A stretch of DNA of 53,227 nt from a phage. Where the stretch lies: NCBI GenBank assembly GCA_014161675.1, contig GCA_014161675.1_4760.2; one strand, given 5' to 3'. Below, in pieces: positions 3,266 through 13,937 of this stretch. The notes under the pieces were generated by a model. The model ran no database searches. It worked only from the letters and a program-made list of their open reading frames with translations, and was not told the origin of the DNA. Each line of letters starts with the position of its first letter. Positions within the stretch are counted from its first letter, which is position 1. Made by a program: the position numbers and the translations under genes.

Positions 3266-4213
3266 TTAGAACTCACCAATTTTCTGCAACATTTTAACTA
3301 ACGCATTTGTTACAAAATAGTTATAAATTTTACCGCGTGGTGCTGGTTTAGATTTCTCCCATGCTAACAAAATTTCATATTCGATGTTATCAGGAATAAA
3401 TTCAAAATCAATAAGTTCGCGGTTTTCGTCAAAGCGTCGTGCTTCTTCCTCTGTCATCAAATACTTTGGATCTTCGGCATCGAAAATTTGCTCTAACCAT
3501 TTGGTTGCAATTGGTTTAGCTCGTTCTCCTTCCAGTCGTGAGATAATGAAATCACTACGGCACTTGATCGAAGCTACACCGTCTTTTGCGTCACCCTTAA
3601 CACATTTTACCATAAGGTCTTTGTAAGGGCTACCATATTTGCATTTCTTCCATGCTTTCTGTACTGGTGCCCACTGTTTCACATTTTTGTATTTGTGCAA
3701 CTGTGTGTAGTCACCATCGCCGGAGTTGATTAGCACCTGGCGACCTTCTACAGAAAACTTTTTAGTTAATACAGCGATTATATCATCCGCTTCAACTTTG
3801 TCAACCTTAATAACGTGATAAGGCATGTTCTCTTTAAACTCTTCGGTGATCTTATTGATCGCAGCAAAGATCATCTCCCAATCACGCGGATCTGCGTCTC
3901 GTTTTTCCTTACGGTTGCGTTTATAGTAAGGTGCGATATCACGTCGCCAGTAACCTTTGCTTGAATCAAAGGCAAGTACCGTAATTGGGTATTGCTCTTT
4001 GAATTTTGTCATATTATAACGCATGGTGTCAAGAATAAGATGACGGATCATGCCTTCACTAATAGGATCTTCCGGTTTAAAGGTATGCGAGATAGTAGCA
4101 ATCATAAGCTGCGACATATCAATCAAATGCACACCTTCCGGTAGTTTATCTTCTGGATCATCGAAGAAATCATTAAGTGTAGCGGTAGTTTTTGTAAACG
4201 GGTTATACGTCAT
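3266..4213 (-). CDS. rnh: RNase H (5'-3' exonuclease / flap endonuclease)
   Basis: 315 aa; recalled T4 RNase H similarity (GYWRRD, YYKRNR, MPYHVIKVDKVEADDIIAVL, SGDGDYTQLHKYKNVKQW, PPRGKIYNYF). Confidence 0.9.
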   Translation of the reverse strand: MTYNPFTKTTATLNDFFDDPEDKLPEGVHLIDMSQLMIATISHTFKPEDPISEGMIRHLILDTMRYNMTKFKEQYPITVLAFDSSKGYWRRDIAPYYKRNRKEKRDADPRDWEMIFAAINKITEEFKENMPYHVIKVDKVEADDIIAVLTKKFSVEGRQVLINSGDGDYTQLHKYKNVKQWAPVQKAWKKCKYGSPYKDLMVKCVKGDAKDGVASIKCRSDFIISRLEGERAKPIATKWLEQIFDAEDPKYLMTEEEARRFDENRELIDFEFIPDNIEYEILLAWEKSKPAPRGKIYNYFVTNALVKMLQKIGEF

Positions 4214-4215
4214 AA

Positions 4216-4401
4216 TTAAGTTCTCTCCACTCTCACAACAACATATTCGCCAAACGAGTTAGATACTTCACGATCATACCCGTATTTCTCCATAACTCGC
4301 AGAATTGCATTGTTTAATTCGGCACGGAAATAATTGTAATCCTTATCAGGGATTCTGTCAACTATCCATTTTGCACCTTCTGACAAATCAACTTTAACCA
4401 T
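4216..4401 (-). CDS. Hypothetical protein (61 aa)
   Basis: ORF preceded by AAAGAGGA; lies in the divergent region between rnh and gene 34. Confidence 0.45.
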   Translation of the reverse strand: MVKVDLSEGAKWIVDRIPDKDYNYFRAELNNAILRVMEKYGYDREVSNSFGEYVVVRVERT

Positions 4402-4439
4402 AATTTATCATCCTCTTTTGTTTCTATCAAGCCTCATTT

Positions 4440-4447
4440 TATAAATA
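4440..4447 (+). promoter_or_regulatory. T4-type late promoter (TATAAATA) for gene 34
   Basis: Exact TATAAATA about 28 bp upstream of the gene 34 ATG at 4476, followed by AAGGAG. Confidence 0.6.
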
Positions 4448-4475
4448 TGAACATACTATAAAAGGAGACCCAATA

Positions 4476-7400
4476 ATGGCAGATTTTTCTCAACATTTCA
4501 AGGCCACATTTGGCTTTGACGCTGGTAATGAAAAGGTCGTCAATGTAGCATTGGCTGATAAGAATGTCAACACCGATGCGGTCAACGTTGAATTTTTCAA
4601 TTACCATAATGGTATTACTCAGTATGACACAACTCGCGGTTATGATCAATACGGAACTACAATCTATCAAAACCGTCCGTATTATGCAAAAGAAGATATC
4701 ACAAAGCCAGCAGGAGATTTTGACCCGACTAAATGGCAAGCACTGCGCACGGACCCACGTTGGGATTATATTGCAGCAACTTCCGGTGATACTCCTTTAC
4801 AGTCTGGCGATTATATCGCAGCAGATGGTCAATTTGCAAACTTGACTTTCTCTATGCCAACTAAACCAGCAGAGGGAGACACTATAACAGTAAAAGATAT
4901 CGGTGGCAAGTGTGGTGTTAACGAATTATCGTTCTTGAGTACAGGACATGAGTTTTACCATAATGGTAATGTGTATAACAGAAAATGGTATTGCACTACC
5001 CCGTATGCAATGAACTATTTCATCTTTGTTCGGAATCGTTGGCATGTTTATCAGACAGGAACAGAGCCACGCGGTGTGTACGCACAGCCAGCGATTGATG
5101 CTATTCAAATGCAGAATGGTGATCAGGTATTTCGTCGTAGTTCGTTGGGTAATATTACCTTAGTGCTTCCTAAGTTTGCCAACAATGGCGACATGATCCA
5201 GACTACAGACCTTGACGGATTAACCGCAACCAACCACGTTACGGTTAAAGTTCATGAGCACGCAGAAGAACAATCAATTGGCACGTCCGGTCTAAAAGAG
5301 ATTATCGGTAAGCGTAGCGGTCATGGTGTATTCATCTTTGACAAGACGGAAAACTTATGGCGTTTGTGGGATGGTGATCAGTCTGTTCGTCTTAAACCGA
5401 TCATCAATGACACTCGCTTGCAACCTAATAGCTATGTTGCTGTATTTGGTGGTCGTGATGTTACTCTGACGCTGCCGACCAATGTCGAGCCGGGTGATCG
5501 TATTCAAGTTTCTATGCAGTATATGCACGGAAACCAGAATTGCCGTATTATCACCGCCACAGAGGATACAAAAATCCTTATGTCGAAAAACATGGTTCAG
5601 TTTCCGAAGCGTAGCGAGTACCCATTCAACGGGACCGACACATGGAAGGAAGTGTCTGAATTGTCGTTCAATGCGGCTAGTGATTATGTACCTTATCTGG
5701 AGTTCTCTTATTCAGAAGGTGATGATGGTAAGAAACATTGGCTGGTAGCACACGCTCATCCGATCGTAGAACGAGTAGATCCGACTCGTAAAGCGCGTGT
5801 CGGTGTAATTGCACTGGCTACCCAGACTGAAACGAATAAAAACCATGAAGAGAATCCTAGCGACGAAGTTGCAGTAACACCAAAAATGCTGGCTAATAAA
5901 ACCGCCAACGAAACTCGACGCGGTATTGCTCGCATTGCGACTCAGGCGGAAACGCATCAAGATACTGGTTCCATCTTCCTGGATGATGTTATCGTTACGC
6001 CTAAAAAGTTAAATGACTGTGTTGCTACCGAAGCCCGTCGTGGTGTGATGGAAATTGCAACCCAGCACGAAACCAATGAAGGTTTAGATGATACCCGCGC
6101 TATTACTCCTAAGAAATTAGAAGAACGTCGCGCTTCCGAAGATCTCGCTGGTATTGCTGAAATTGTTCAGGCTGGCGGTAGTGCTGCCGCTCGACGTGGC
6201 GAAGCTGGTACAGGGATCTATAACATCAACGACCATGTTAAAATTGTTACGCCACAAAACATCAACGAAGTCAAGGCGACCGAAACTTCCCGTGGTGTTG
6301 GCTATCTGGCAACTGACGCGGAAGTGCAAGGGGCTACAGAATCAACCCCGCAAGATGCTTTACTAATCACGACTCGCACGCTAACGAAACGTACTGCTAC
6401 AGAATCGCGTACTGGTATCGCTGAAATTGCAACTCAGGAAGAAACAAACTTAGGTCAAAGTGATAACCATATCATCACGCCTAAAAAGCTGCATACTCGC
6501 CGCGCAACGGAAACTTTACATGGTTTAGCAGAAATTGCAACTCAGACGGAATTTGACGCAGGTCTTGACGATTCTCGCATTTCTACCCCATTGAAGATTA
6601 AAACCTTCTTTGAGAATGCACAGCGTTTGAAAGTAGATCCGACTCAGGGGCTTAACCTTACTGGTGATTTGTGGCAAGGTATCATGATCAGCGGTCTGGA
6701 TGCAACCGAAGACACAAAAGGTGTCGCTAAAGTTGCTACTACTCAGCTTACGGATGCTGGTCAAGATGATACTACAATCATCACGCCTAAAAAGCTGCAA
6801 GGCAAAAAAGCCACCGAAGGTAAAGAAGGCATTATCCGAGTTGGTACTCAAGCCGAAACCGTGGCTGGTATTATGGACAATGTAGCAATTTCTCCGAAGA
6901 ACTTCAAATATGTTGTTCAGACAGAGGATACATGGAAAGCAACCGAAGCGCGTCGTGGCTTCTTGAAAGTTGCTACTCAGGAAAACTGTTTTGTTGGTGA
7001 TAATCTGCAAGGTTCTACTCAAGAACTAGGAAACTACCAGCATGACGGAATTGCTGTTACTCCGAAAGGATTAAACTACGCACTTGCTAATTTCTTACCT
7101 AAGATGGCAACCGCTCAGAATAGTTTGAAATTGGGTAACGTAGAGGCCGCTAAATGGGCGCGTAGAGACATTGACCAGACCATAGAGAGCAATTATACGT
7201 TTAATAAAAACGTTAACGTGAAGGGCGATTTAGAGTGCTTAAAATCTGGTTCCTTTGAAACTCTGTCTGTGACTAAGAACTCGACCGATGTTCCGAGTAA
7301 TGGTCATCTGGTATTGGGTGAGCGTGGAGTTGACGGTCACACCGGAATTACTCTGCATGGCACAACCGCATCGGAAGGCATGAAAAACTCTTGGTCTATT

Positions 7401-8216
7401 ATCGTTGGTGGTACTGGAACAGCGCAAGTTGTTGATAGTGATGCTATCGCTTTCGGTAAAATCAATGATGGTGGAGTCGTTGAGCATTACGCCTTTGCTA
7501 TGAAACACAATGGCGACGCGACAGCATATCGAGACTTTATTGCAGGTCGTAACCTGTATGCGAAACAAGGCGGTTTATACATTGTTGACCAGTCTAATCC
7601 GGCAATGACTCGTTCCCCAGATGGTATGCTGAATATCGGTCACGGTGGAAGTGTTAACATCAAGGCAGGGCATCAAACGTTAACTACAGAGATCGCCGGA
7701 CAGAAGTATCAGATCGTACATGCAGGAAACGCTGACGAAGTTCTTAACCGTCAGTTTGTTAAGAATGCTGGCGATACAATGGTCGGTAAGCTGACTATGG
7801 ATAATGCGCCTATTGTTTCTGTTAAGCATGAAGCTAGCGCGGCAACCGCTCCGGCAATCGGTAACATCGGTTTCTGGAATATGCGAGTTACTACCCAGAA
7901 CATCAAAGAAACTTATCCAGAGAAGAAAAACGGTACTCTGATGCAATGGGGTACTGACGCGGACGGGCTTACCCAGCTTTGGTCCCCTGATGGTACTCAT
8001 AAACATTATATCCGTTCCGGTACTGGTGGTCAATGGACCGCATGGGGTGAAATTTACACCAAACAGAACAAGCCTACCGCTCAGGAAATTGGGGCAGTGG
8101 TTGCCGAAGGTGGTTTGATGAACTCTATGACGGTTCGTGATTGGATCAAAGTTGGTAATGTTAAAATCATCGCCAATAATCTGACTCGTACCGTAGACTT
8201 TATCTGGGAAGACTAA
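4476..8216 (+). CDS. 34: Long tail fibre proximal subunit gp34
   Basis: 1246 aa; recalled T4 gp34 similarity (LPKFANNGD, FPKRSEYP, repeated ITPKKL / GIAEIATQ modules, C-terminal IGAVV...DFIWED). Confidence 0.93.
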   Translation: MADFSQHFKATFGFDAGNEKVVNVALADKNVNTDAVNVEFFNYHNGITQYDTTRGYDQYGTTIYQNRPYYAKEDITKPAGDFDPTKWQALRTDPRWDYIAATSGDTPLQSGDYIAADGQFANLTFSMPTKPAEGDTITVKDIGGKCGVNELSFLSTGHEFYHNGNVYNRKWYCTTPYAMNYFIFVRNRWHVYQTGTEPRGVYAQPAIDAIQMQNGDQVFRRSSLGNITLVLPKFANNGDMIQTTDLDGLTATNHVTVKVHEHAEEQSIGTSGLKEIIGKRSGHGVFIFDKTENLWRLWDGDQSVRLKPIINDTRLQPNSYVAVFGGRDVTLTLPTNVEPGDRIQVSMQYMHGNQNCRIITATEDTKILMSKNMVQFPKRSEYPFNGTDTWKEVSELSFNAASDYVPYLEFSYSEGDDGKKHWLVAHAHPIVERVDPTRKARVGVIALATQTETNKNHEENPSDEVAVTPKMLANKTANETRRGIARIATQAETHQDTGSIFLDDVIVTPKKLNDCVATEARRGVMEIATQHETNEGLDDTRAITPKKLEERRASEDLAGIAEIVQAGGSAAARRGEAGTGIYNINDHVKIVTPQNINEVKATETSRGVGYLATDAEVQGATESTPQDALLITTRTLTKRTATESRTGIAEIATQEETNLGQSDNHIITPKKLHTRRATETLHGLAEIATQTEFDAGLDDSRISTPLKIKTFFENAQRLKVDPTQGLNLTGDLWQGIMISGLDATEDTKGVAKVATTQLTDAGQDDTTIITPKKLQGKKATEGKEGIIRVGTQAETVAGIMDNVAISPKNFKYVVQTEDTWKATEARRGFLKVATQENCFVGDNLQGSTQELGNYQHDGIAVTPKGLNYALANFLPKMATAQNSLKLGNVEAAKWARRDIDQTIESNYTFNKNVNVKGDLECLKSGSFETLSVTKNSTDVPSNGHLVLGERGVDGHTGITLHGTTASEGMKNSWSIIVGGTGTAQVVDSDAIAFGKINDGGVVEHYAFAMKHNGDATAYRDFIAGRNLYAKQGGLYIVDQSNPAMTRSPDGMLNIGHGGSVNIKAGHQTLTTEIAGQKYQIVHAGNADEVLNRQFVKNAGDTMVGKLTMDNAPIVSVKHEASAATAPAIGNIGFWNMRVTTQNIKETYPEKKNGTLMQWGTDADGLTQLWSPDGTHKHYIRSGTGGQWTAWGEIYTKQNKPTAQEIGAVVAEGGLMNSMTVRDWIKVGNVKIIANNLTRTVDFIWED
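5868..7030 (+). repeat. Intragenic tandem repeat array in gene 34 (about 9-10 units of about 38-40 codons)
   Basis: Repeated protein unit TE.RRG.A.IATQ.E...G.DD..I.TPKKL. At DNA level an exact 23-nt copy ATCATCACGCCTAAAAAGCTGCA occurs at 6471-6493 and 6777-6799, with further GAAATTGCAAC(T/C)CAG copies. Confidence 0.8.
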
Positions 8217-8221
8217 TTAAA

Positions 8222-8244
8222 GGGGGCGAAAGCCCCCTATGGGG
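8222..8244 (+). promoter_or_regulatory. GC hairpin with GAAA tetraloop at the 34/35 junction, with an alternative pairing that could mask the gene 35 ribosome-binding site
   Basis: GGGGGC-GAAA-GCCCCC immediately after the gene 34 stop; the CCCCC arm can instead pair with the GGGG 6-9 nt upstream of the gene 35 ATG. No U-tract follows. Confidence 0.4.
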
Positions 8245-8249
8245 TTATT

Positions 8250-9389
8250 ATGACACAAGATATAGAATTACGCAATACTGGAATTAGGTTTGCGCATTTC
8301 GACGAAGACTCTGCGACATTTACCAGCATTTCAGAAAATAACTCTGTGATGTATAAGCTGGAAGTGCGCGGATCTAATGCGGATTCTACCAAACCAGCAA
8401 GGATTAGATTTAATGGAGTGGAGATCGTTGGCGCTGGCTATGAAAATGGCCTAAATTTGAAAGTTCTTACTCCAACTGGACAACTACACGAAGAAAAGGT
8501 ATTCTATGGTCGCGGTGCTGTTTTGGCAATGCGTGATTATCTTTCTTTGCTGAAAGGTGATTATATCATTGCGATGGCAACTCATGGAGAATTGTTTGCA
8601 GATCCGATAAGTGATGTTGTATTTTCTAAGATGGGATCTGTATCATTCCCGAATCATATTTTGTTACAGCAAATGCCTCGCGTATCCTATGCAGCAATTT
8701 ATTCTACTAAAATGGGTAAAATTGTGTGCGAAGGGATGCAAGCGACCAACGGGGAAGGACAAGATTCATCTATACAAATTGAGAAAGTCTATGATACTAT
8801 AGATGATCTTGCTATAACAGGAACACCACAACGATTTTTAGATTATCCGGTTGAGTATGTTAGCGAAGATGCCGAACATTTCGAGCTAATACAATGGCCT
8901 CATGATGAGACCAGCGCCCCACTTGAGGATTTTAACATAAAGGCAGGTGACAAACTATCAATATCATTTGAATTGTTCCGTGATAGTGCCGCAGCCGCAG
9001 CCAACGTAACAGCGCGTTTCTATCACAACTACTTCACCGATGGACAATATAAAACTGGTGTTCGATACAATGCCAGCAAAAAAGACCAATGGGAAAAGTT
9101 TGAAGCCGTCTATACCGTACCGGAAGGAGTTGATAGTGTAGTAACTGGTTGTATCAGATATCCAACCAACTCCAATGAAGGTATTGTTAAAATTAGAAAC
9201 ATACTAATAACGCCGATCAGTGGAGTCGTCAAAACTACTGGTCCTACTTCATTTGGTGTTAATGGTGTCAGAACAACTCATATTCAGGATAACGGTGATT
9301 TTACTAACCCTGTAATGAGTCTTCTTAAACTTCCTAGAGATAATAAACACATCACATCCAACAACTTTAAAGAGTTCGATGTTGATTAA
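8250..9389 (+). CDS. 35: Long tail fibre hinge connector gp35
   Basis: 379 aa; position after 34 and a C-terminal FGVNGVR motif recalled from T4 gp35. Confidence 0.8.
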   Translation: MTQDIELRNTGIRFAHFDEDSATFTSISENNSVMYKLEVRGSNADSTKPARIRFNGVEIVGAGYENGLNLKVLTPTGQLHEEKVFYGRGAVLAMRDYLSLLKGDYIIAMATHGELFADPISDVVFSKMGSVSFPNHILLQQMPRVSYAAIYSTKMGKIVCEGMQATNGEGQDSSIQIEKVYDTIDDLAITGTPQRFLDYPVEYVSEDAEHFELIQWPHDETSAPLEDFNIKAGDKLSISFELFRDSAAAAANVTARFYHNYFTDGQYKTGVRYNASKKDQWEKFEAVYTVPEGVDSVVTGCIRYPTNSNEGIVKIRNILITPISGVVKTTGPTSFGVNGVRTTHIQDNGDFTNPVMSLLKLPRDNKHITSNNFKEFDVD

Positions 9390-11153: not shown

Positions 11154-13937
11154 ATGGCAGATTTAAGCAGAATCCAATTTAAACGCACTAGCACTAAAGG
11201 TCGTAAACCTGATGCTAGTGCGATGAATCCTGGGGAATTGGCAATCAACCTTGCGGATCAATATCTTCTTACTAAAAATGATTCCGGTACTATTATCAAT
11301 TTAAGTTGTCCTCCGGTTTATGACCGCGATGTTACAATGGCGGGTAAGGTTAAAGGTAATAATTATATCTTAAGTAAAACCGCTAACTATCTGGAAGATC
11401 AGACAGCGAGAGATCTTAACTACTTTGGCGCTTTCCGTACCAATGGTCTTGATGGTCTTCTCGAACTCACGCTAAACGTTCCTCACTCTTCCGGTGTCCA
11501 ACATGGTCGAGGATTTACTTTCCAGTATGGACATACTGGATCACGAGTAGAAACCTATGGATATAATAGAGAAGGTCAAAAAGCATTTAGCTATAAAATG
11601 TATCACGAAGGTGATAAACCAACTCCAGGAGAATTGAACGTCTATAGCAAACAAGAAATTGACCGTATGTTTGTTAAGAACGTTAAAATGGTTGTTCCTT
11701 CTGGTGGTGCAACCCGTGGTTATTTTAAAATTGCATCCGCAATAATCCCGCAGAGTGGTCGGATGGCGTTTCTGCGAATCTATGGTGGTAATGGATATAA
11801 TGTAAACTCATATGATCAAGTTGATTTTCTTGAAATTGTTATTCGTAGTGGTAATAATAACCCTAAAGGCGTTAGTATTGCTGCATATCGTCGAAATTCT
11901 TTGAACGTCCACGAAGTATTTGCAATTAATACTTCCGGGGATAACTATGACATTTATGTTAACTATGGTCGTTACACCGATAACGTTATTGTAGAGTTTG
12001 GAAAAACTGTTGATGTTGCATTGACTGTTCACGATGTTCCTGAATTTTCGGCGACTAAACCAGCAACCGGAACTAAATTTGATGCTCGTGTTATTACGAT
12101 GTTCAACACCGAAAACAAAGCCGGAACGTTGATGTTTGATAATAACAATCAGTTAACCTATGATATTGTTAGCCTTAGCAATGGTCCTGATGATGTTAGA
12201 AATTATCTGCGTAAATTCCGAAGTAAAGCGGGTGAAATGATTTGGCATGAAACAGTTCAGGGTGCTGTATATCGTCTTGCTACTGGAACTACTGATTCTA
12301 CGGAAGTTCTTAGAGTTGATTCTAATAGTGCTATACCCGGTAGTTATAAAGGATATGTAATTACTGGTAAAATGGAATTGCATGGTAGTGGTAATTCGAT
12401 GATTTTACATCGCCAGACTGCTCAAGCCGCGTACATGTCGTGGTGGGATCGTCGTGATGGCAAAAACCAACGTAGCGGTTATATCGGTCATGCAGATGGG
12501 ACTAGTGATGCTATTGTGTGGAATAATGATATTGGACAAAACAGTGTTGTTCTAGAAACATCTGGTCAAATATCTTTCAGAACAGGTGAAACCAAAATTG
12601 TATATACCAACGGACAATATTATTCCGCTAACTCTGATGCATACCGTATGATCTTTGGTAATTACGGTGCATTCTGGCGTAATGACGGCACTAAAGTTTA
12701 TCTTCTGTCTACTGCTGAAAACGATAAATTTGGTGGTTGGAATGGTTATCGTCCATTCATTTATGATTTAACTTCCGGTAACGTTCAATTAGGCGGTGAT
12801 GGTAACGAAGAAGCATTAACGTTAGAACGTGCTTCTCGTGCCGCTCGCTTTAGTAATGACGTTTACATTAAGAAAGGGCATTTGACTTTCGACGCTGGGC
12901 GATTAAATTCCCGCGATTACTTCCGGTTTAACCATTGGGGCGATAGCAATAACGGTCGTGATAACATTCTATATCTAGAAGACAGTAAAGGTCGACATTT
13001 TAGCACCGAGCGTAATATGGCAACGGGTGCATTAAAAGCCGACTTCTTAGGCGATCTTGAAGTTGGTGGTAAGTTGATATGGGGTAAGAATACCGGACAA
13101 TCTAGCTTCAATATTCGTGCATGGGGTAATGATTCTCGTAAGCAAGTATTAGAATGCGCGGATGAAAGTGGTTGGCATTGGTATACCGAACGTACTGCGG
13201 GTGGCACTGGTCCGATTAAGTTCTCTGTTGCAGGTTCTTTCCATAGCGCAAGTGATGTTAACGTAGGCGGTAGTCTGAATTTTGGTAATGCTATTCAACG
13301 CGGCGCTAGCGTCATTACTATAGCTTCTAGTTCTGCTGGTGCTGGTTCTTTTGCATCTCAACATGATGATAACGTCAAAGCACCTATTTTCCAACGTTTA
13401 GACCGTGGTGATGCGTCTACATATGTTCCTTTGATTAAGCAACGTTATGTTCAAGGTGCAGTAACATTCTCGTTGGGTATGCTTCTTAACGAAGGTTCAT
13501 GGCGAGTTCATGTTAAAGGTTCTGGTGTTGAATCTAATACTACCTTCTATAAAAACGGCGATTTCCAAGCTGGACGCAATGGTAACTTTAACGACGTTTA
13601 CATTCGCTCTGATGCTCGCCTTAAAATCAATAAGGAAGAGTATAAAGAGAATGCCACTGATAAAGTTAATCGCTTGACTGTATACACCTACGATAAGGTT
13701 AAATCTTTAACTGACCGTACTGTCATTGCTCATGAAGTTGGTATTATTGCTCAGGATCTTGAGAAAGAATTGCCGGAAGCAGTAACAACTTCTAACATCG
13801 GCGATCCTGATAAGCCAGAAGAGATCTTAACAATTTCTAACTCTGCTGTCAACGCTCTTTTAATTAAGGCGTTTCAGGAAATGAGCGAAGAACTTAAAGC
13901 CGTTAAAGCTGAACTAGCGGAACTTAAAAAGAATTAA
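11154..13937 (+). CDS. 37: Long tail fibre distal subunit gp37 with C-terminal intramolecular chaperone (peptidase S74-type) domain
   Basis: 927 aa; recalled T4 gp37 similarity (IQFKR...KGRKP, AGAGSFASQ, DVKAPIFQRLDRGDASTYVPLIKQRYVQG). C-terminus carries YIRS-DARLK and HEVGIIAQDLEKELPEAV, the signature of autoproteolytic fibre chaperone domains. Predicted cleavage after Ser819 (codon 13608-13610). Confidence 0.9.
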   Translation: MADLSRIQFKRTSTKGRKPDASAMNPGELAINLADQYLLTKNDSGTIINLSCPPVYDRDVTMAGKVKGNNYILSKTANYLEDQTARDLNYFGAFRTNGLDGLLELTLNVPHSSGVQHGRGFTFQYGHTGSRVETYGYNREGQKAFSYKMYHEGDKPTPGELNVYSKQEIDRMFVKNVKMVVPSGGATRGYFKIASAIIPQSGRMAFLRIYGGNGYNVNSYDQVDFLEIVIRSGNNNPKGVSIAAYRRNSLNVHEVFAINTSGDNYDIYVNYGRYTDNVIVEFGKTVDVALTVHDVPEFSATKPATGTKFDARVITMFNTENKAGTLMFDNNNQLTYDIVSLSNGPDDVRNYLRKFRSKAGEMIWHETVQGAVYRLATGTTDSTEVLRVDSNSAIPGSYKGYVITGKMELHGSGNSMILHRQTAQAAYMSWWDRRDGKNQRSGYIGHADGTSDAIVWNNDIGQNSVVLETSGQISFRTGETKIVYTNGQYYSANSDAYRMIFGNYGAFWRNDGTKVYLLSTAENDKFGGWNGYRPFIYDLTSGNVQLGGDGNEEALTLERASRAARFSNDVYIKKGHLTFDAGRLNSRDYFRFNHWGDSNNGRDNILYLEDSKGRHFSTERNMATGALKADFLGDLEVGGKLIWGKNTGQSSFNIRAWGNDSRKQVLECADESGWHWYTERTAGGTGPIKFSVAGSFHSASDVNVGGSLNFGNAIQRGASVITIASSSAGAGSFASQHDDNVKAPIFQRLDRGDASTYVPLIKQRYVQGAVTFSLGMLLNEGSWRVHVKGSGVESNTTFYKNGDFQAGRNGNFNDVYIRSDARLKINKEEYKENATDKVNRLTVYTYDKVKSLTDRTVIAHEVGIIAQDLEKELPEAVTTSNIGDPDKPEEILTISNSAVNALLIKAFQEMSEELKAVKAELAELKKN

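Follow-up and report, generated by a model that had tools for sequence, protein, structure and literature searches.

A T4-type fibre repeat array in gene 34 of a Krischvirus, and a 23-nt direct repeat as a probable weak substrate for its shortening

Gene 34 of an RB49-like Krischvirus, a T4-type Escherichia coli phage, encodes a proximal tail fibre subunit that carries ten diverged repeat units, two of which share an exact 23-nt stretch of DNA. We analysed this gene within a contig of 53,227 nucleotides (GCA_014161675.1_4760.2, hereafter the window). The reading that we favour, with a probability of about 0.8, is that the units form a known T4-type array whose DNA copies have diverged, that deletion can use the 23-nt repeat as a weak substrate, and that the shortened gene 34 of Escherichia phage E26 is the product of such a deletion. 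The locus itself is not dynamic, and at the DNA level its tandem units are not near-identical.

The repeat units of the proximal fibre subunit

The ORF at 4476-8216 (plus strand, as are all features below unless stated otherwise) encodes 1246 residues. The ORF listing together with DNA and protein homology confirmed its earlier assignment as gene 34, the proximal subunit of the long tail fibre. At the DNA level it is 96.9-98.4% identical to the best 40 of 59 matching records, which include FL38, RB49, Phi1 and JSE (98% for RB49, FL38 and others), and all 59 are annotated as Krischvirus phages. A phmmer comparison with T4 gp34 (PDB 9x3r_M) gave E=1.3e-239, residues 1-929 being collinear with T4 residues 1-931 and the C-terminus (1149-1245) aligning to T4 residues 1185-1288. 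The crystallised T4 gp34 fragments 5nxh and 5nxf were matched as well, and phrog_972 ('tail fiber protein proximal subunit') covered residues 1-1246 of 1246. Pfam held no family for gp34 at E<=0.1 and no model for the repeat. Upstream of the gene lies a 315-aa ORF on the minus strand (3266-4213), whose counterpart in E26 carries 5'-3' exonuclease and RNaseH_C Pfam domains, and downstream follow plus-strand ORFs of 379, 496 and 927 aa. The order rnh - 34 - 35 - 36 - 37 is found here, with genes 35-37 putatively assigned by position. Judging from these similarities, gp34 of this phage would form a T4-type parallel homotrimer that links the baseplate to the distal half-fibre.

[quoted passage not shown] The start of each unit was set eight residues ahead of a conserved glycine, which is present in all ten units (residues 443, 483, 523, 559, 607, 647, 683, 749, 785 and 828). 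Units R1 (5778-5897), R2 (5898-6017) and R5 (6270-6389) measure 40 residues and R3 (6018-6125), R6 (6390-6497) and R8 (6696-6803) 36 residues; R4 (6126-6269) has 48, R7 (6498-6695) 66, R9 (6804-6932) 43 and R10 (6933-7079) 49. The preliminary description had proposed about 9-10 tandem units of a uniform 38-40 codons at 5868-7030. The number of units agrees with ours, while the uniform length gives way to units of 36, 40, 43, 48, 49 and 66 codons and the proposed extent proves slightly too narrow. The internal periodicity at the protein level is real. When scored with an HMM built from the other nine, each of the ten units exceeded all 200 of its own shuffles; eight units reached 31-62 bits, and R4 (7.9) and R5 (11.8) were weak. 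The common motif reads ATE-x-x-x-G-hydrophobic-x-x-hydrophobic-A-T-Q, then a variable loop, then [IV]-[TS]-P-K-K-L. The Ser/Thr-Pro pair occurs in nine of the ten units, the exception being R5 with Thr-Thr (ITTRTL). The HMM domain of R7 ends at residue 710, and a 30-codon extension of its core (TFFENAQRLKVDPTQGLNLTGDLWQGIMISG, 6606-6695), delimited by the unit alignment, the end of this domain and the T4 alignment, interrupts the array; it has a matching place in T4 gp34 in the collinear alignment. No other ORF within the window carries the repeat, and no gp12-like gene bearing it was found there.

Three such repeats of T4 gp34, at residues 744-776, 780-812 and 823-868, have been solved by Granell et al. 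2017 (PMC5537660), where an extra repeat is listed at 552-598 and residues 182-215 of gp12 are superimposed on the gp34 units. As described there, a tight turn comes first, a beta-strand then begins at a conserved Gly (consensus position 9), and a short helix and a variable loop lead to a Ser/Thr-Pro pair (positions 43-44) that caps the central helix; the three chains make a three-helix bundle along the fibre axis. In a 121-sequence alignment R1 to R7 of the window map to T4 residues 433-475, 476-515, 516-551, 552-600, 601-640, 641-676 and 677-742, and R8, R9 and R10 map to 743-778, 779-821 and 822-870, so that R8-R10 and R4 coincide with the four published units. In T4 gp34 the units that match R4, R7 and R10 carry their long loops at equal positions. 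Each window unit is 33-69% identical to its own T4 counterpart, compared with 38% on average for pairs of units inside the window. Since the T4-matched units are on average more alike than the window units are among themselves, the array predates the split between T4 and RB49 and has not been homogenised. Residues 586-709 of the window protein also match the gp12 repeats (PDB 5IV5, 5LYE) with E=4.9e-10 to 2.5e-07. On the strength of these alignments, the units are the mixed alpha-beta fibrous repeat already known from the published T4 gp34 and gp12 structures, and the presence of the array is textbook T4 fibre architecture rather than news. The preliminary description had not linked the array to this structural repeat. 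By homology to solved T4 gp34, each small alpha-beta domain would be a trimer built from one unit of each of three chains, and the domains would be stacked into a fixed-length rod that serves as the shaft of the long tail fibre's proximal half.

Divergence of the DNA and constancy of array length

Pairwise comparison of aligned codons gave nucleotide identities of 35-62% between units (mean 49%) and amino-acid identities of 19-58% (mean 38%). Tandem Repeats Finder, run on positions 4000-9000, returned no rows, so that the array is undetectable as a tandem repeat of DNA; gapless repeat families were 60-73% alike. The near-identical nucleotide repeats that had been proposed for this gene are therefore not borne out, with the sole exception of one 23-nt stretch. 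The next longest exact repeats in gene 34 measure 15, 14 and 12 nt. The 15-nt repeat, GAAATTGCAACTCAG, stands at 6423-6437 and 6531-6545, at a spacing of 108 nt or one unit, and is a potential, weaker substrate for recombination. A search among gp34 homologues for the 36-aa indel that corresponds to its spacing found none, and thus no natural variant that used this repeat.

Array length was compared across phages at several levels. Among 120 cluster representatives, at identities of 37-98%, the array stretch (window residues 430-875) measured 444-467 aa, except in E26 (344 aa), in a partial protein and in a protein that lacks 14 aa of a loop. The remaining indels of at least 8 aa were insertions of 10-16 aa in the R10 loop. 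When the 445-aa array was compared by tblastn with 50,697 phage records, 1474 gave a match; a single match covered at least 80% of the array in 1459 of them, and coverage fell below 80% in 15. Spans ranged from 1323 to 1479 nt, for a query of 1335 nt, among the matches listed with full coverage, and full-length arrays were found in phages of Escherichia, Acinetobacter, Aeromonas and Vibrio. The full array was present in 58 of the 59 Krischvirus records, E26 being the one with a gap. In three large Krischvirus protein clusters the full-length-looking members listed had 1242-1246 aa, and three short members (937, 323 and 203 aa) came from contigs of less than 4 kb. A duplication variant of the array was found neither in the 120 homologue clusters nor by a junction scan of IMG/VR, a collection that held one Krischvirus contig. 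Copy number in relatives, which had been put forward as a point of comparison, varied in one of the 59 Krischvirus records, that of E26 with its shortened array.

These lengths bear directly on the proposal that the array is a dynamic, contingency-like tandem DNA repeat, whose unit number shifts often and tunes the length of the fibre. All units are in frame, short exact repeats of 23, 15 and 12 nt lie in register and one deletion variant is known, as such an array would have it. However, the divergence of the units and the silence of Tandem Repeats Finder, the full length of nearly all Krischvirus records, the narrow range among the cluster representatives, the coverage of the array in nearly all matching records from Escherichia to Vibrio and Acinetobacter phages, and duplication variants that were not seen make this proposal extremely improbable. 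The near-constant length suggests instead that the fibre is under strong purifying selection for length, as far as can be judged from comparison of the sequences, and the need of the proximal half-fibre to fit the tail, sheath and whiskers may be the reason for this constraint.

The 23-nt repeat and the shortened gene 34 of phage E26

The 23-nt repeat, ATCATCACGCCTAAAAAGCTGCA, stands as exact matches at the end of R6 (copy 1, 6471-6493) and at the end of R8 (copy 2, 6777-6799). It encodes IITPKKL followed by CA of a His codon in copy 1 and of a Gln codon in copy 2, and so covers in both units the Thr-Pro that caps the central helix, the structural element with the best conservation. The two copies are 306 nt (102 codons) apart, their identity stops at 23 nt on either side, and the sequence occurs exactly twice in the window, with no third site even when three mismatches are allowed. 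In 300 codon shuffles of gene 34 the longest exact repeat was 10-16 nt, so that the 23-mer exceeds what chance would give in random sequence of like composition; 100 dinucleotide shuffles of the window likewise held 0 matches to it, again with 3 mismatches allowed. The exact repeat noted earlier at these two places is thus real and above chance in both tests.

At least 32 of the 58 full-length Krischvirus records have the exact sequence at both places: 30-base probes around both copies were matched at 100% in 31 records, and JEP8 also has the exact pair. Elsewhere the copies differ at synonymous sites. Copy 2 carries ATT ACT in G5211, UPWr_E1 and one metagenome contig, ATC ACT in FL04, FL15, G2494 and Makalu_001, and ATC ACG in the RB49 group; this last is the form of copy 1, hence the 23-nt identity. 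Copy 1 of FL04 differs too, at three synonymous sites, and copy 2 of PHB13 has CTA in place of CTG. Such changes lower the in-register identity to 2-20 nt.

We considered whether the 23-nt identity was made or kept not by chance but by gene conversion between the units, as a local form of concerted evolution at the TPKKL motif. Given the peptide IITPKKL and the codon usage of gene 34, all seven codons would match with P ~0.0014. This value hints at local conversion, but is post hoc because the site was chosen as the longest repeat. The same codon is used at 78-81% of the identical residues in the pairs R6/R8 and R2/R8, compared with 51% overall, and the number of synonymous differences between copy 2 and copy 1 falls from two in divergent Krischviruses to one in others and none in the RB49 group. 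However, these are two separate steps in different genomes, and two point substitutions fit them equally well. The flanks of the 23-mer have diverged on both sides, and general homogenisation is contradicted by the closer average similarity of the T4-matched units. Conversion as the origin of the identity is therefore somewhat unlikely.

The shortened gene 34 belongs to Escherichia phage E26 (MN655998.1), recorded as a complete genome of 164,572 bp from sewage in China with enterotoxigenic E. coli as host. E26 gp34 has 1144 aa, exactly 102 aa (306 nt) fewer than the window gp34. Protein and DNA alignment place the absent segment, 306 nt or 102 codons, at 6495-6800 of the window; it comprises the last codon of R6, R7 in full together with its 30-aa extension, and almost the whole of R8. 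In the protein, the gap runs from just past IITPKKLH in R6 to just past IITPKKLQ in R8. Its length equals the spacing of the 23-mers, and a single 23-mer copy is kept at the junction. The remainder of E26 gene 34 is 97.6% identical to the window, and PHB13, the nearest relative of E26 over this stretch (98.7%), has the gene at full length. Because both 23-mer copies share the unit register, R6 and R8 are fused in the E26 product into one intact hybrid unit, 36 residues long, which leads into R9. With the repeat HMM, 8 domains were found in E26 gp34, the last ending at residue 766, and the genes adjoining gene 34 in E26 are of normal length.

At the base level the junction departs slightly from the simplest expectation. 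For the repeat pair of this phage, the deletion junction would be AACCATATCATCACGCCTAAAAAGCTGCA-GGCAAAAAA and the reciprocal duplication junction ACTACAATCATCACGCCTAAAAAGCTGCA-TACTCGCC. In relatives, copy 1 continues as CAT ACT and copy 2 as CAA GGC, so that a crossover strictly within the 23-mer predicts CTGCAA-GGC. E26 has a T instead and reads CTGCAT-GGC (CTGCAT-GGCAAAAAA) within its junction-spanning sequence, CTGCATGGC. This T was found at the copy 2 position in 0 of the 11 relatives read at the DNA level (nine phage records and two database contigs); at the protein level, His occurs at that position in more distant relatives. The T may stem from a 24-nt repeat in the progenitor, from a later A-to-T change or from joining one base beyond the homology.

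The same base matters for the possibility that the deletion is an artefact of assembly or consensus calling, in which the assembly skipped between the copies across the shared 23-mer; the repeat would then have no demonstrated effect through recombination and be a local coincidence within a conserved motif. E26 is one record and one contig, and small assembly k-mers do not exceed a 23-nt repeat in length. But the k-mers of modern assemblers are well above 23, and a mis-join would yield CTGCAA-GGC, whereas CTGCAT-GGC is absent from all full-length relatives read. The junction string should therefore stem from real reads, unless copy 2 of E26 itself had CAT, and the odd base is a mild argument for a real E26 molecule. 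The deletion is also in frame, its hybrid unit still scores as a repeat and the neighbouring genes keep their normal length. On balance an artefact appears unlikely, and we return to E26 as the probable product of deletion at the 23-nt repeat.

Searches for further examples gave no second independent E26-like deletion, in scanned collections that held one or two Krischvirus contigs. Neither the deletion nor the duplication junction was found in IMG/VR, and these nulls say little because the control scan with the 23-mer itself met one Krischvirus contig there. A 23-mer scan of JGI metagenomes found no deletion variant and one full-length contig, whose copy 2 has two synonymous differences. An 80-aa E26 junction peptide compared with a collection of 5.8 billion proteins returned one fragment of unrelated length and missed E26 itself, the query evidently being too short for the index. 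We found in the literature no published account of phage E26 or MN655998, and nothing relevant on in-frame deletions of gene 34 in T4. The E26 deletion is the only mildly new element here, one natural example in a single record. The suggestion that the repeats offer a recombination substrate that alters fibre length is thus upheld in that the E26 deletion ends at both 23-mers, and is to be qualified in that the event is rare and rests on that record.

We propose that the 23-nt direct repeat would serve as a weak substrate for short-homology recombination, single-strand annealing or replication slippage. Efficient homologous recombination in T4 reportedly needs about 50 bp, and deletion at a repeat of 23 nt should therefore be rare. 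Deletions between short direct repeats are also said to occur in phage T4. With the two copies in register, the event would leave a hybrid R6/R8 unit, which would presumably fold normally, and a shaft 102 residues shorter per chain, as in E26; by a rough estimate from the residue fraction (102 of 1246), such a shaft would lose several nm. Citing Tetart 1996 and 1998, PMC3157838 reports that tail-fibre genes of T4-type phages undergo crossovers inside small conserved motifs.

If the E26 record is correct, nature has here put to the test how much of its proximal shaft a phage can do without: infectivity would require neither two of the units nor the conserved R7 extension, and the modularity of the shaft would suffice for shortening it by design. 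A bolder version holds that the R6/R8 repeat is a recurrent length switch, by which short-shaft variants like E26, devoid of two units and the R7 extension, arise repeatedly in Krischvirus populations and are favoured on some hosts or in some conditions, such as a given thickness of the surface layer or an altered retraction of the fibres. The length of the proximal fibre would then vary heritably and adaptively instead of acting as a fixed ruler. Across about 1,460 phage records array length is conserved almost without exception, which points the opposite way, to a proximal fibre length that is apparently tightly constrained, and we regard such a switch as highly unlikely.

Comparison with known fibre repeats and rearrangements

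Variable-number (VNTR) or contingency-type repeats were considered as a model for this locus. Neither of their marks, high identity of neighbouring units and copy-number polymorphism among close relatives, was found, and the model is largely refuted. The closest known system is T4 gp34 itself (PDB 5NXH, 5NXF, 9X3R), a collinear orthologue that shares the ten unit positions, the conserved Gly, the Ser/Thr-Pro pair and the loop-bearing units R4, R7 and R10. It differs in sequence, with about 50% identity to the window protein within the array, and the 23-nt DNA identity of R6 and R8 is confined to a subset of Krischvirus genomes. The short tail fibre protein gp12 of T4 shares the repeat with the window gp34, but is a separate protein with fewer units and another C-terminal receptor-binding part.

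As for the event in E26, it resembles the deletions between short direct repeats of T4 in that its length equals the spacing of the repeats and one copy is retained. It differs from them in that it is inferred from a natural isolate and was not selected in the laboratory, and in that the T at its junction is not predicted by a crossover inside the repeat. With the gp37/gp38 rearrangements in distal fibre and adhesin genes of T4-type phages (Tetart et al. 1996, 1998, as cited in PMC3157838) it has in common an exchange at a short motif that leaves a changed fibre in frame. The gp37/gp38 events, however, duplicate or swap receptor-recognition segments and change host range, whereas the E26 event deletes shaft units of gp34.

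Conservation of the IITPKKL-coding DNA

The proximal long-tail-fibre subunit gp34 carries ten alpha-beta fibrous repeat units, R1 to R10 (array, 5778-7079), and an exact 23-nt repeat encoding IITPKKL lies at the ends of R6 (copy 1, 6471-6493) and R8 (copy 2, 6777-6799). No other DNA in the array comes close to the conservation of the IITPKKL motif. The 30-nt stretches that code for it and its flanks (6468-6497 and 6774-6803) share 90-95% DNA identity with several hundred records from outside Krischvirus, phages T2, EC.W14-2, ZCEC15, Shigella phage sb4 and Enterobacter phage EcL8g being among those listed, despite a protein identity of only about 50% between the whole array and the same phages. 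Within the genus, copy 2 displayed graded synonymous states, ATT ACT, ATC ACT and ATC ACG, among the window and loci L003, L006-L009, L011 and L012. The last of these states is identical to copy 1, and the gradation could reflect either two point changes or a short-tract conversion.

Other sequence features of the array

Another exact repeat, the 14-nt AGTAGATCCGACTC, which codes for VDPT, occurs at 5774-5787, directly ahead of R1, and at 6632-6645, within the 30-codon R7 extension (6606-6695) just before R8. This arrangement hints that the array may perhaps consist of a pair of sub-arrays introduced by similar sequences, but the repeat itself may be due to chance, as about 7% of codon shuffles gave exact repeats of at least 14 nt. 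The array also contains, on the minus strand and thus antisense to gene 34, a 165-aa ORF with a TTG start (6525-7022), which is probably a by-product of the codon composition of the repeat.

Homologues of gp34 and the distal fibre

The window gp34 (4476-8216) returned no match against Pfam-A at E ≤ 0.1. Precomputed annotations place PF21560 on many homologues from outside Krischvirus and PF21446 (Gp34_trimer) on T4-like ones; none of the families listed demonstrably models the alpha-beta repeat. P0125, a 1244-aa Krischvirus gp34 in the cluster of protein P0001, is recorded under Bacillus atrophaeus as a hypothetical protein, partial; its contig measures 3.75 kb, and the bacterial label is most likely owing to contamination of that assembly. 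P0101 and P0163 are likewise labelled Escherichia coli (166-kb contig) and Salmonella enterica, respectively.

Downstream of two ORFs of 379 and 496 aa, the gp37 position of the window is occupied by a large ORF of 927 aa (11154-13937), whereas its counterpart in Escherichia phage E26 (locus L001, from 9372 onward) reaches 981 aa. The distal fibre is therefore not alike in these two close relatives.
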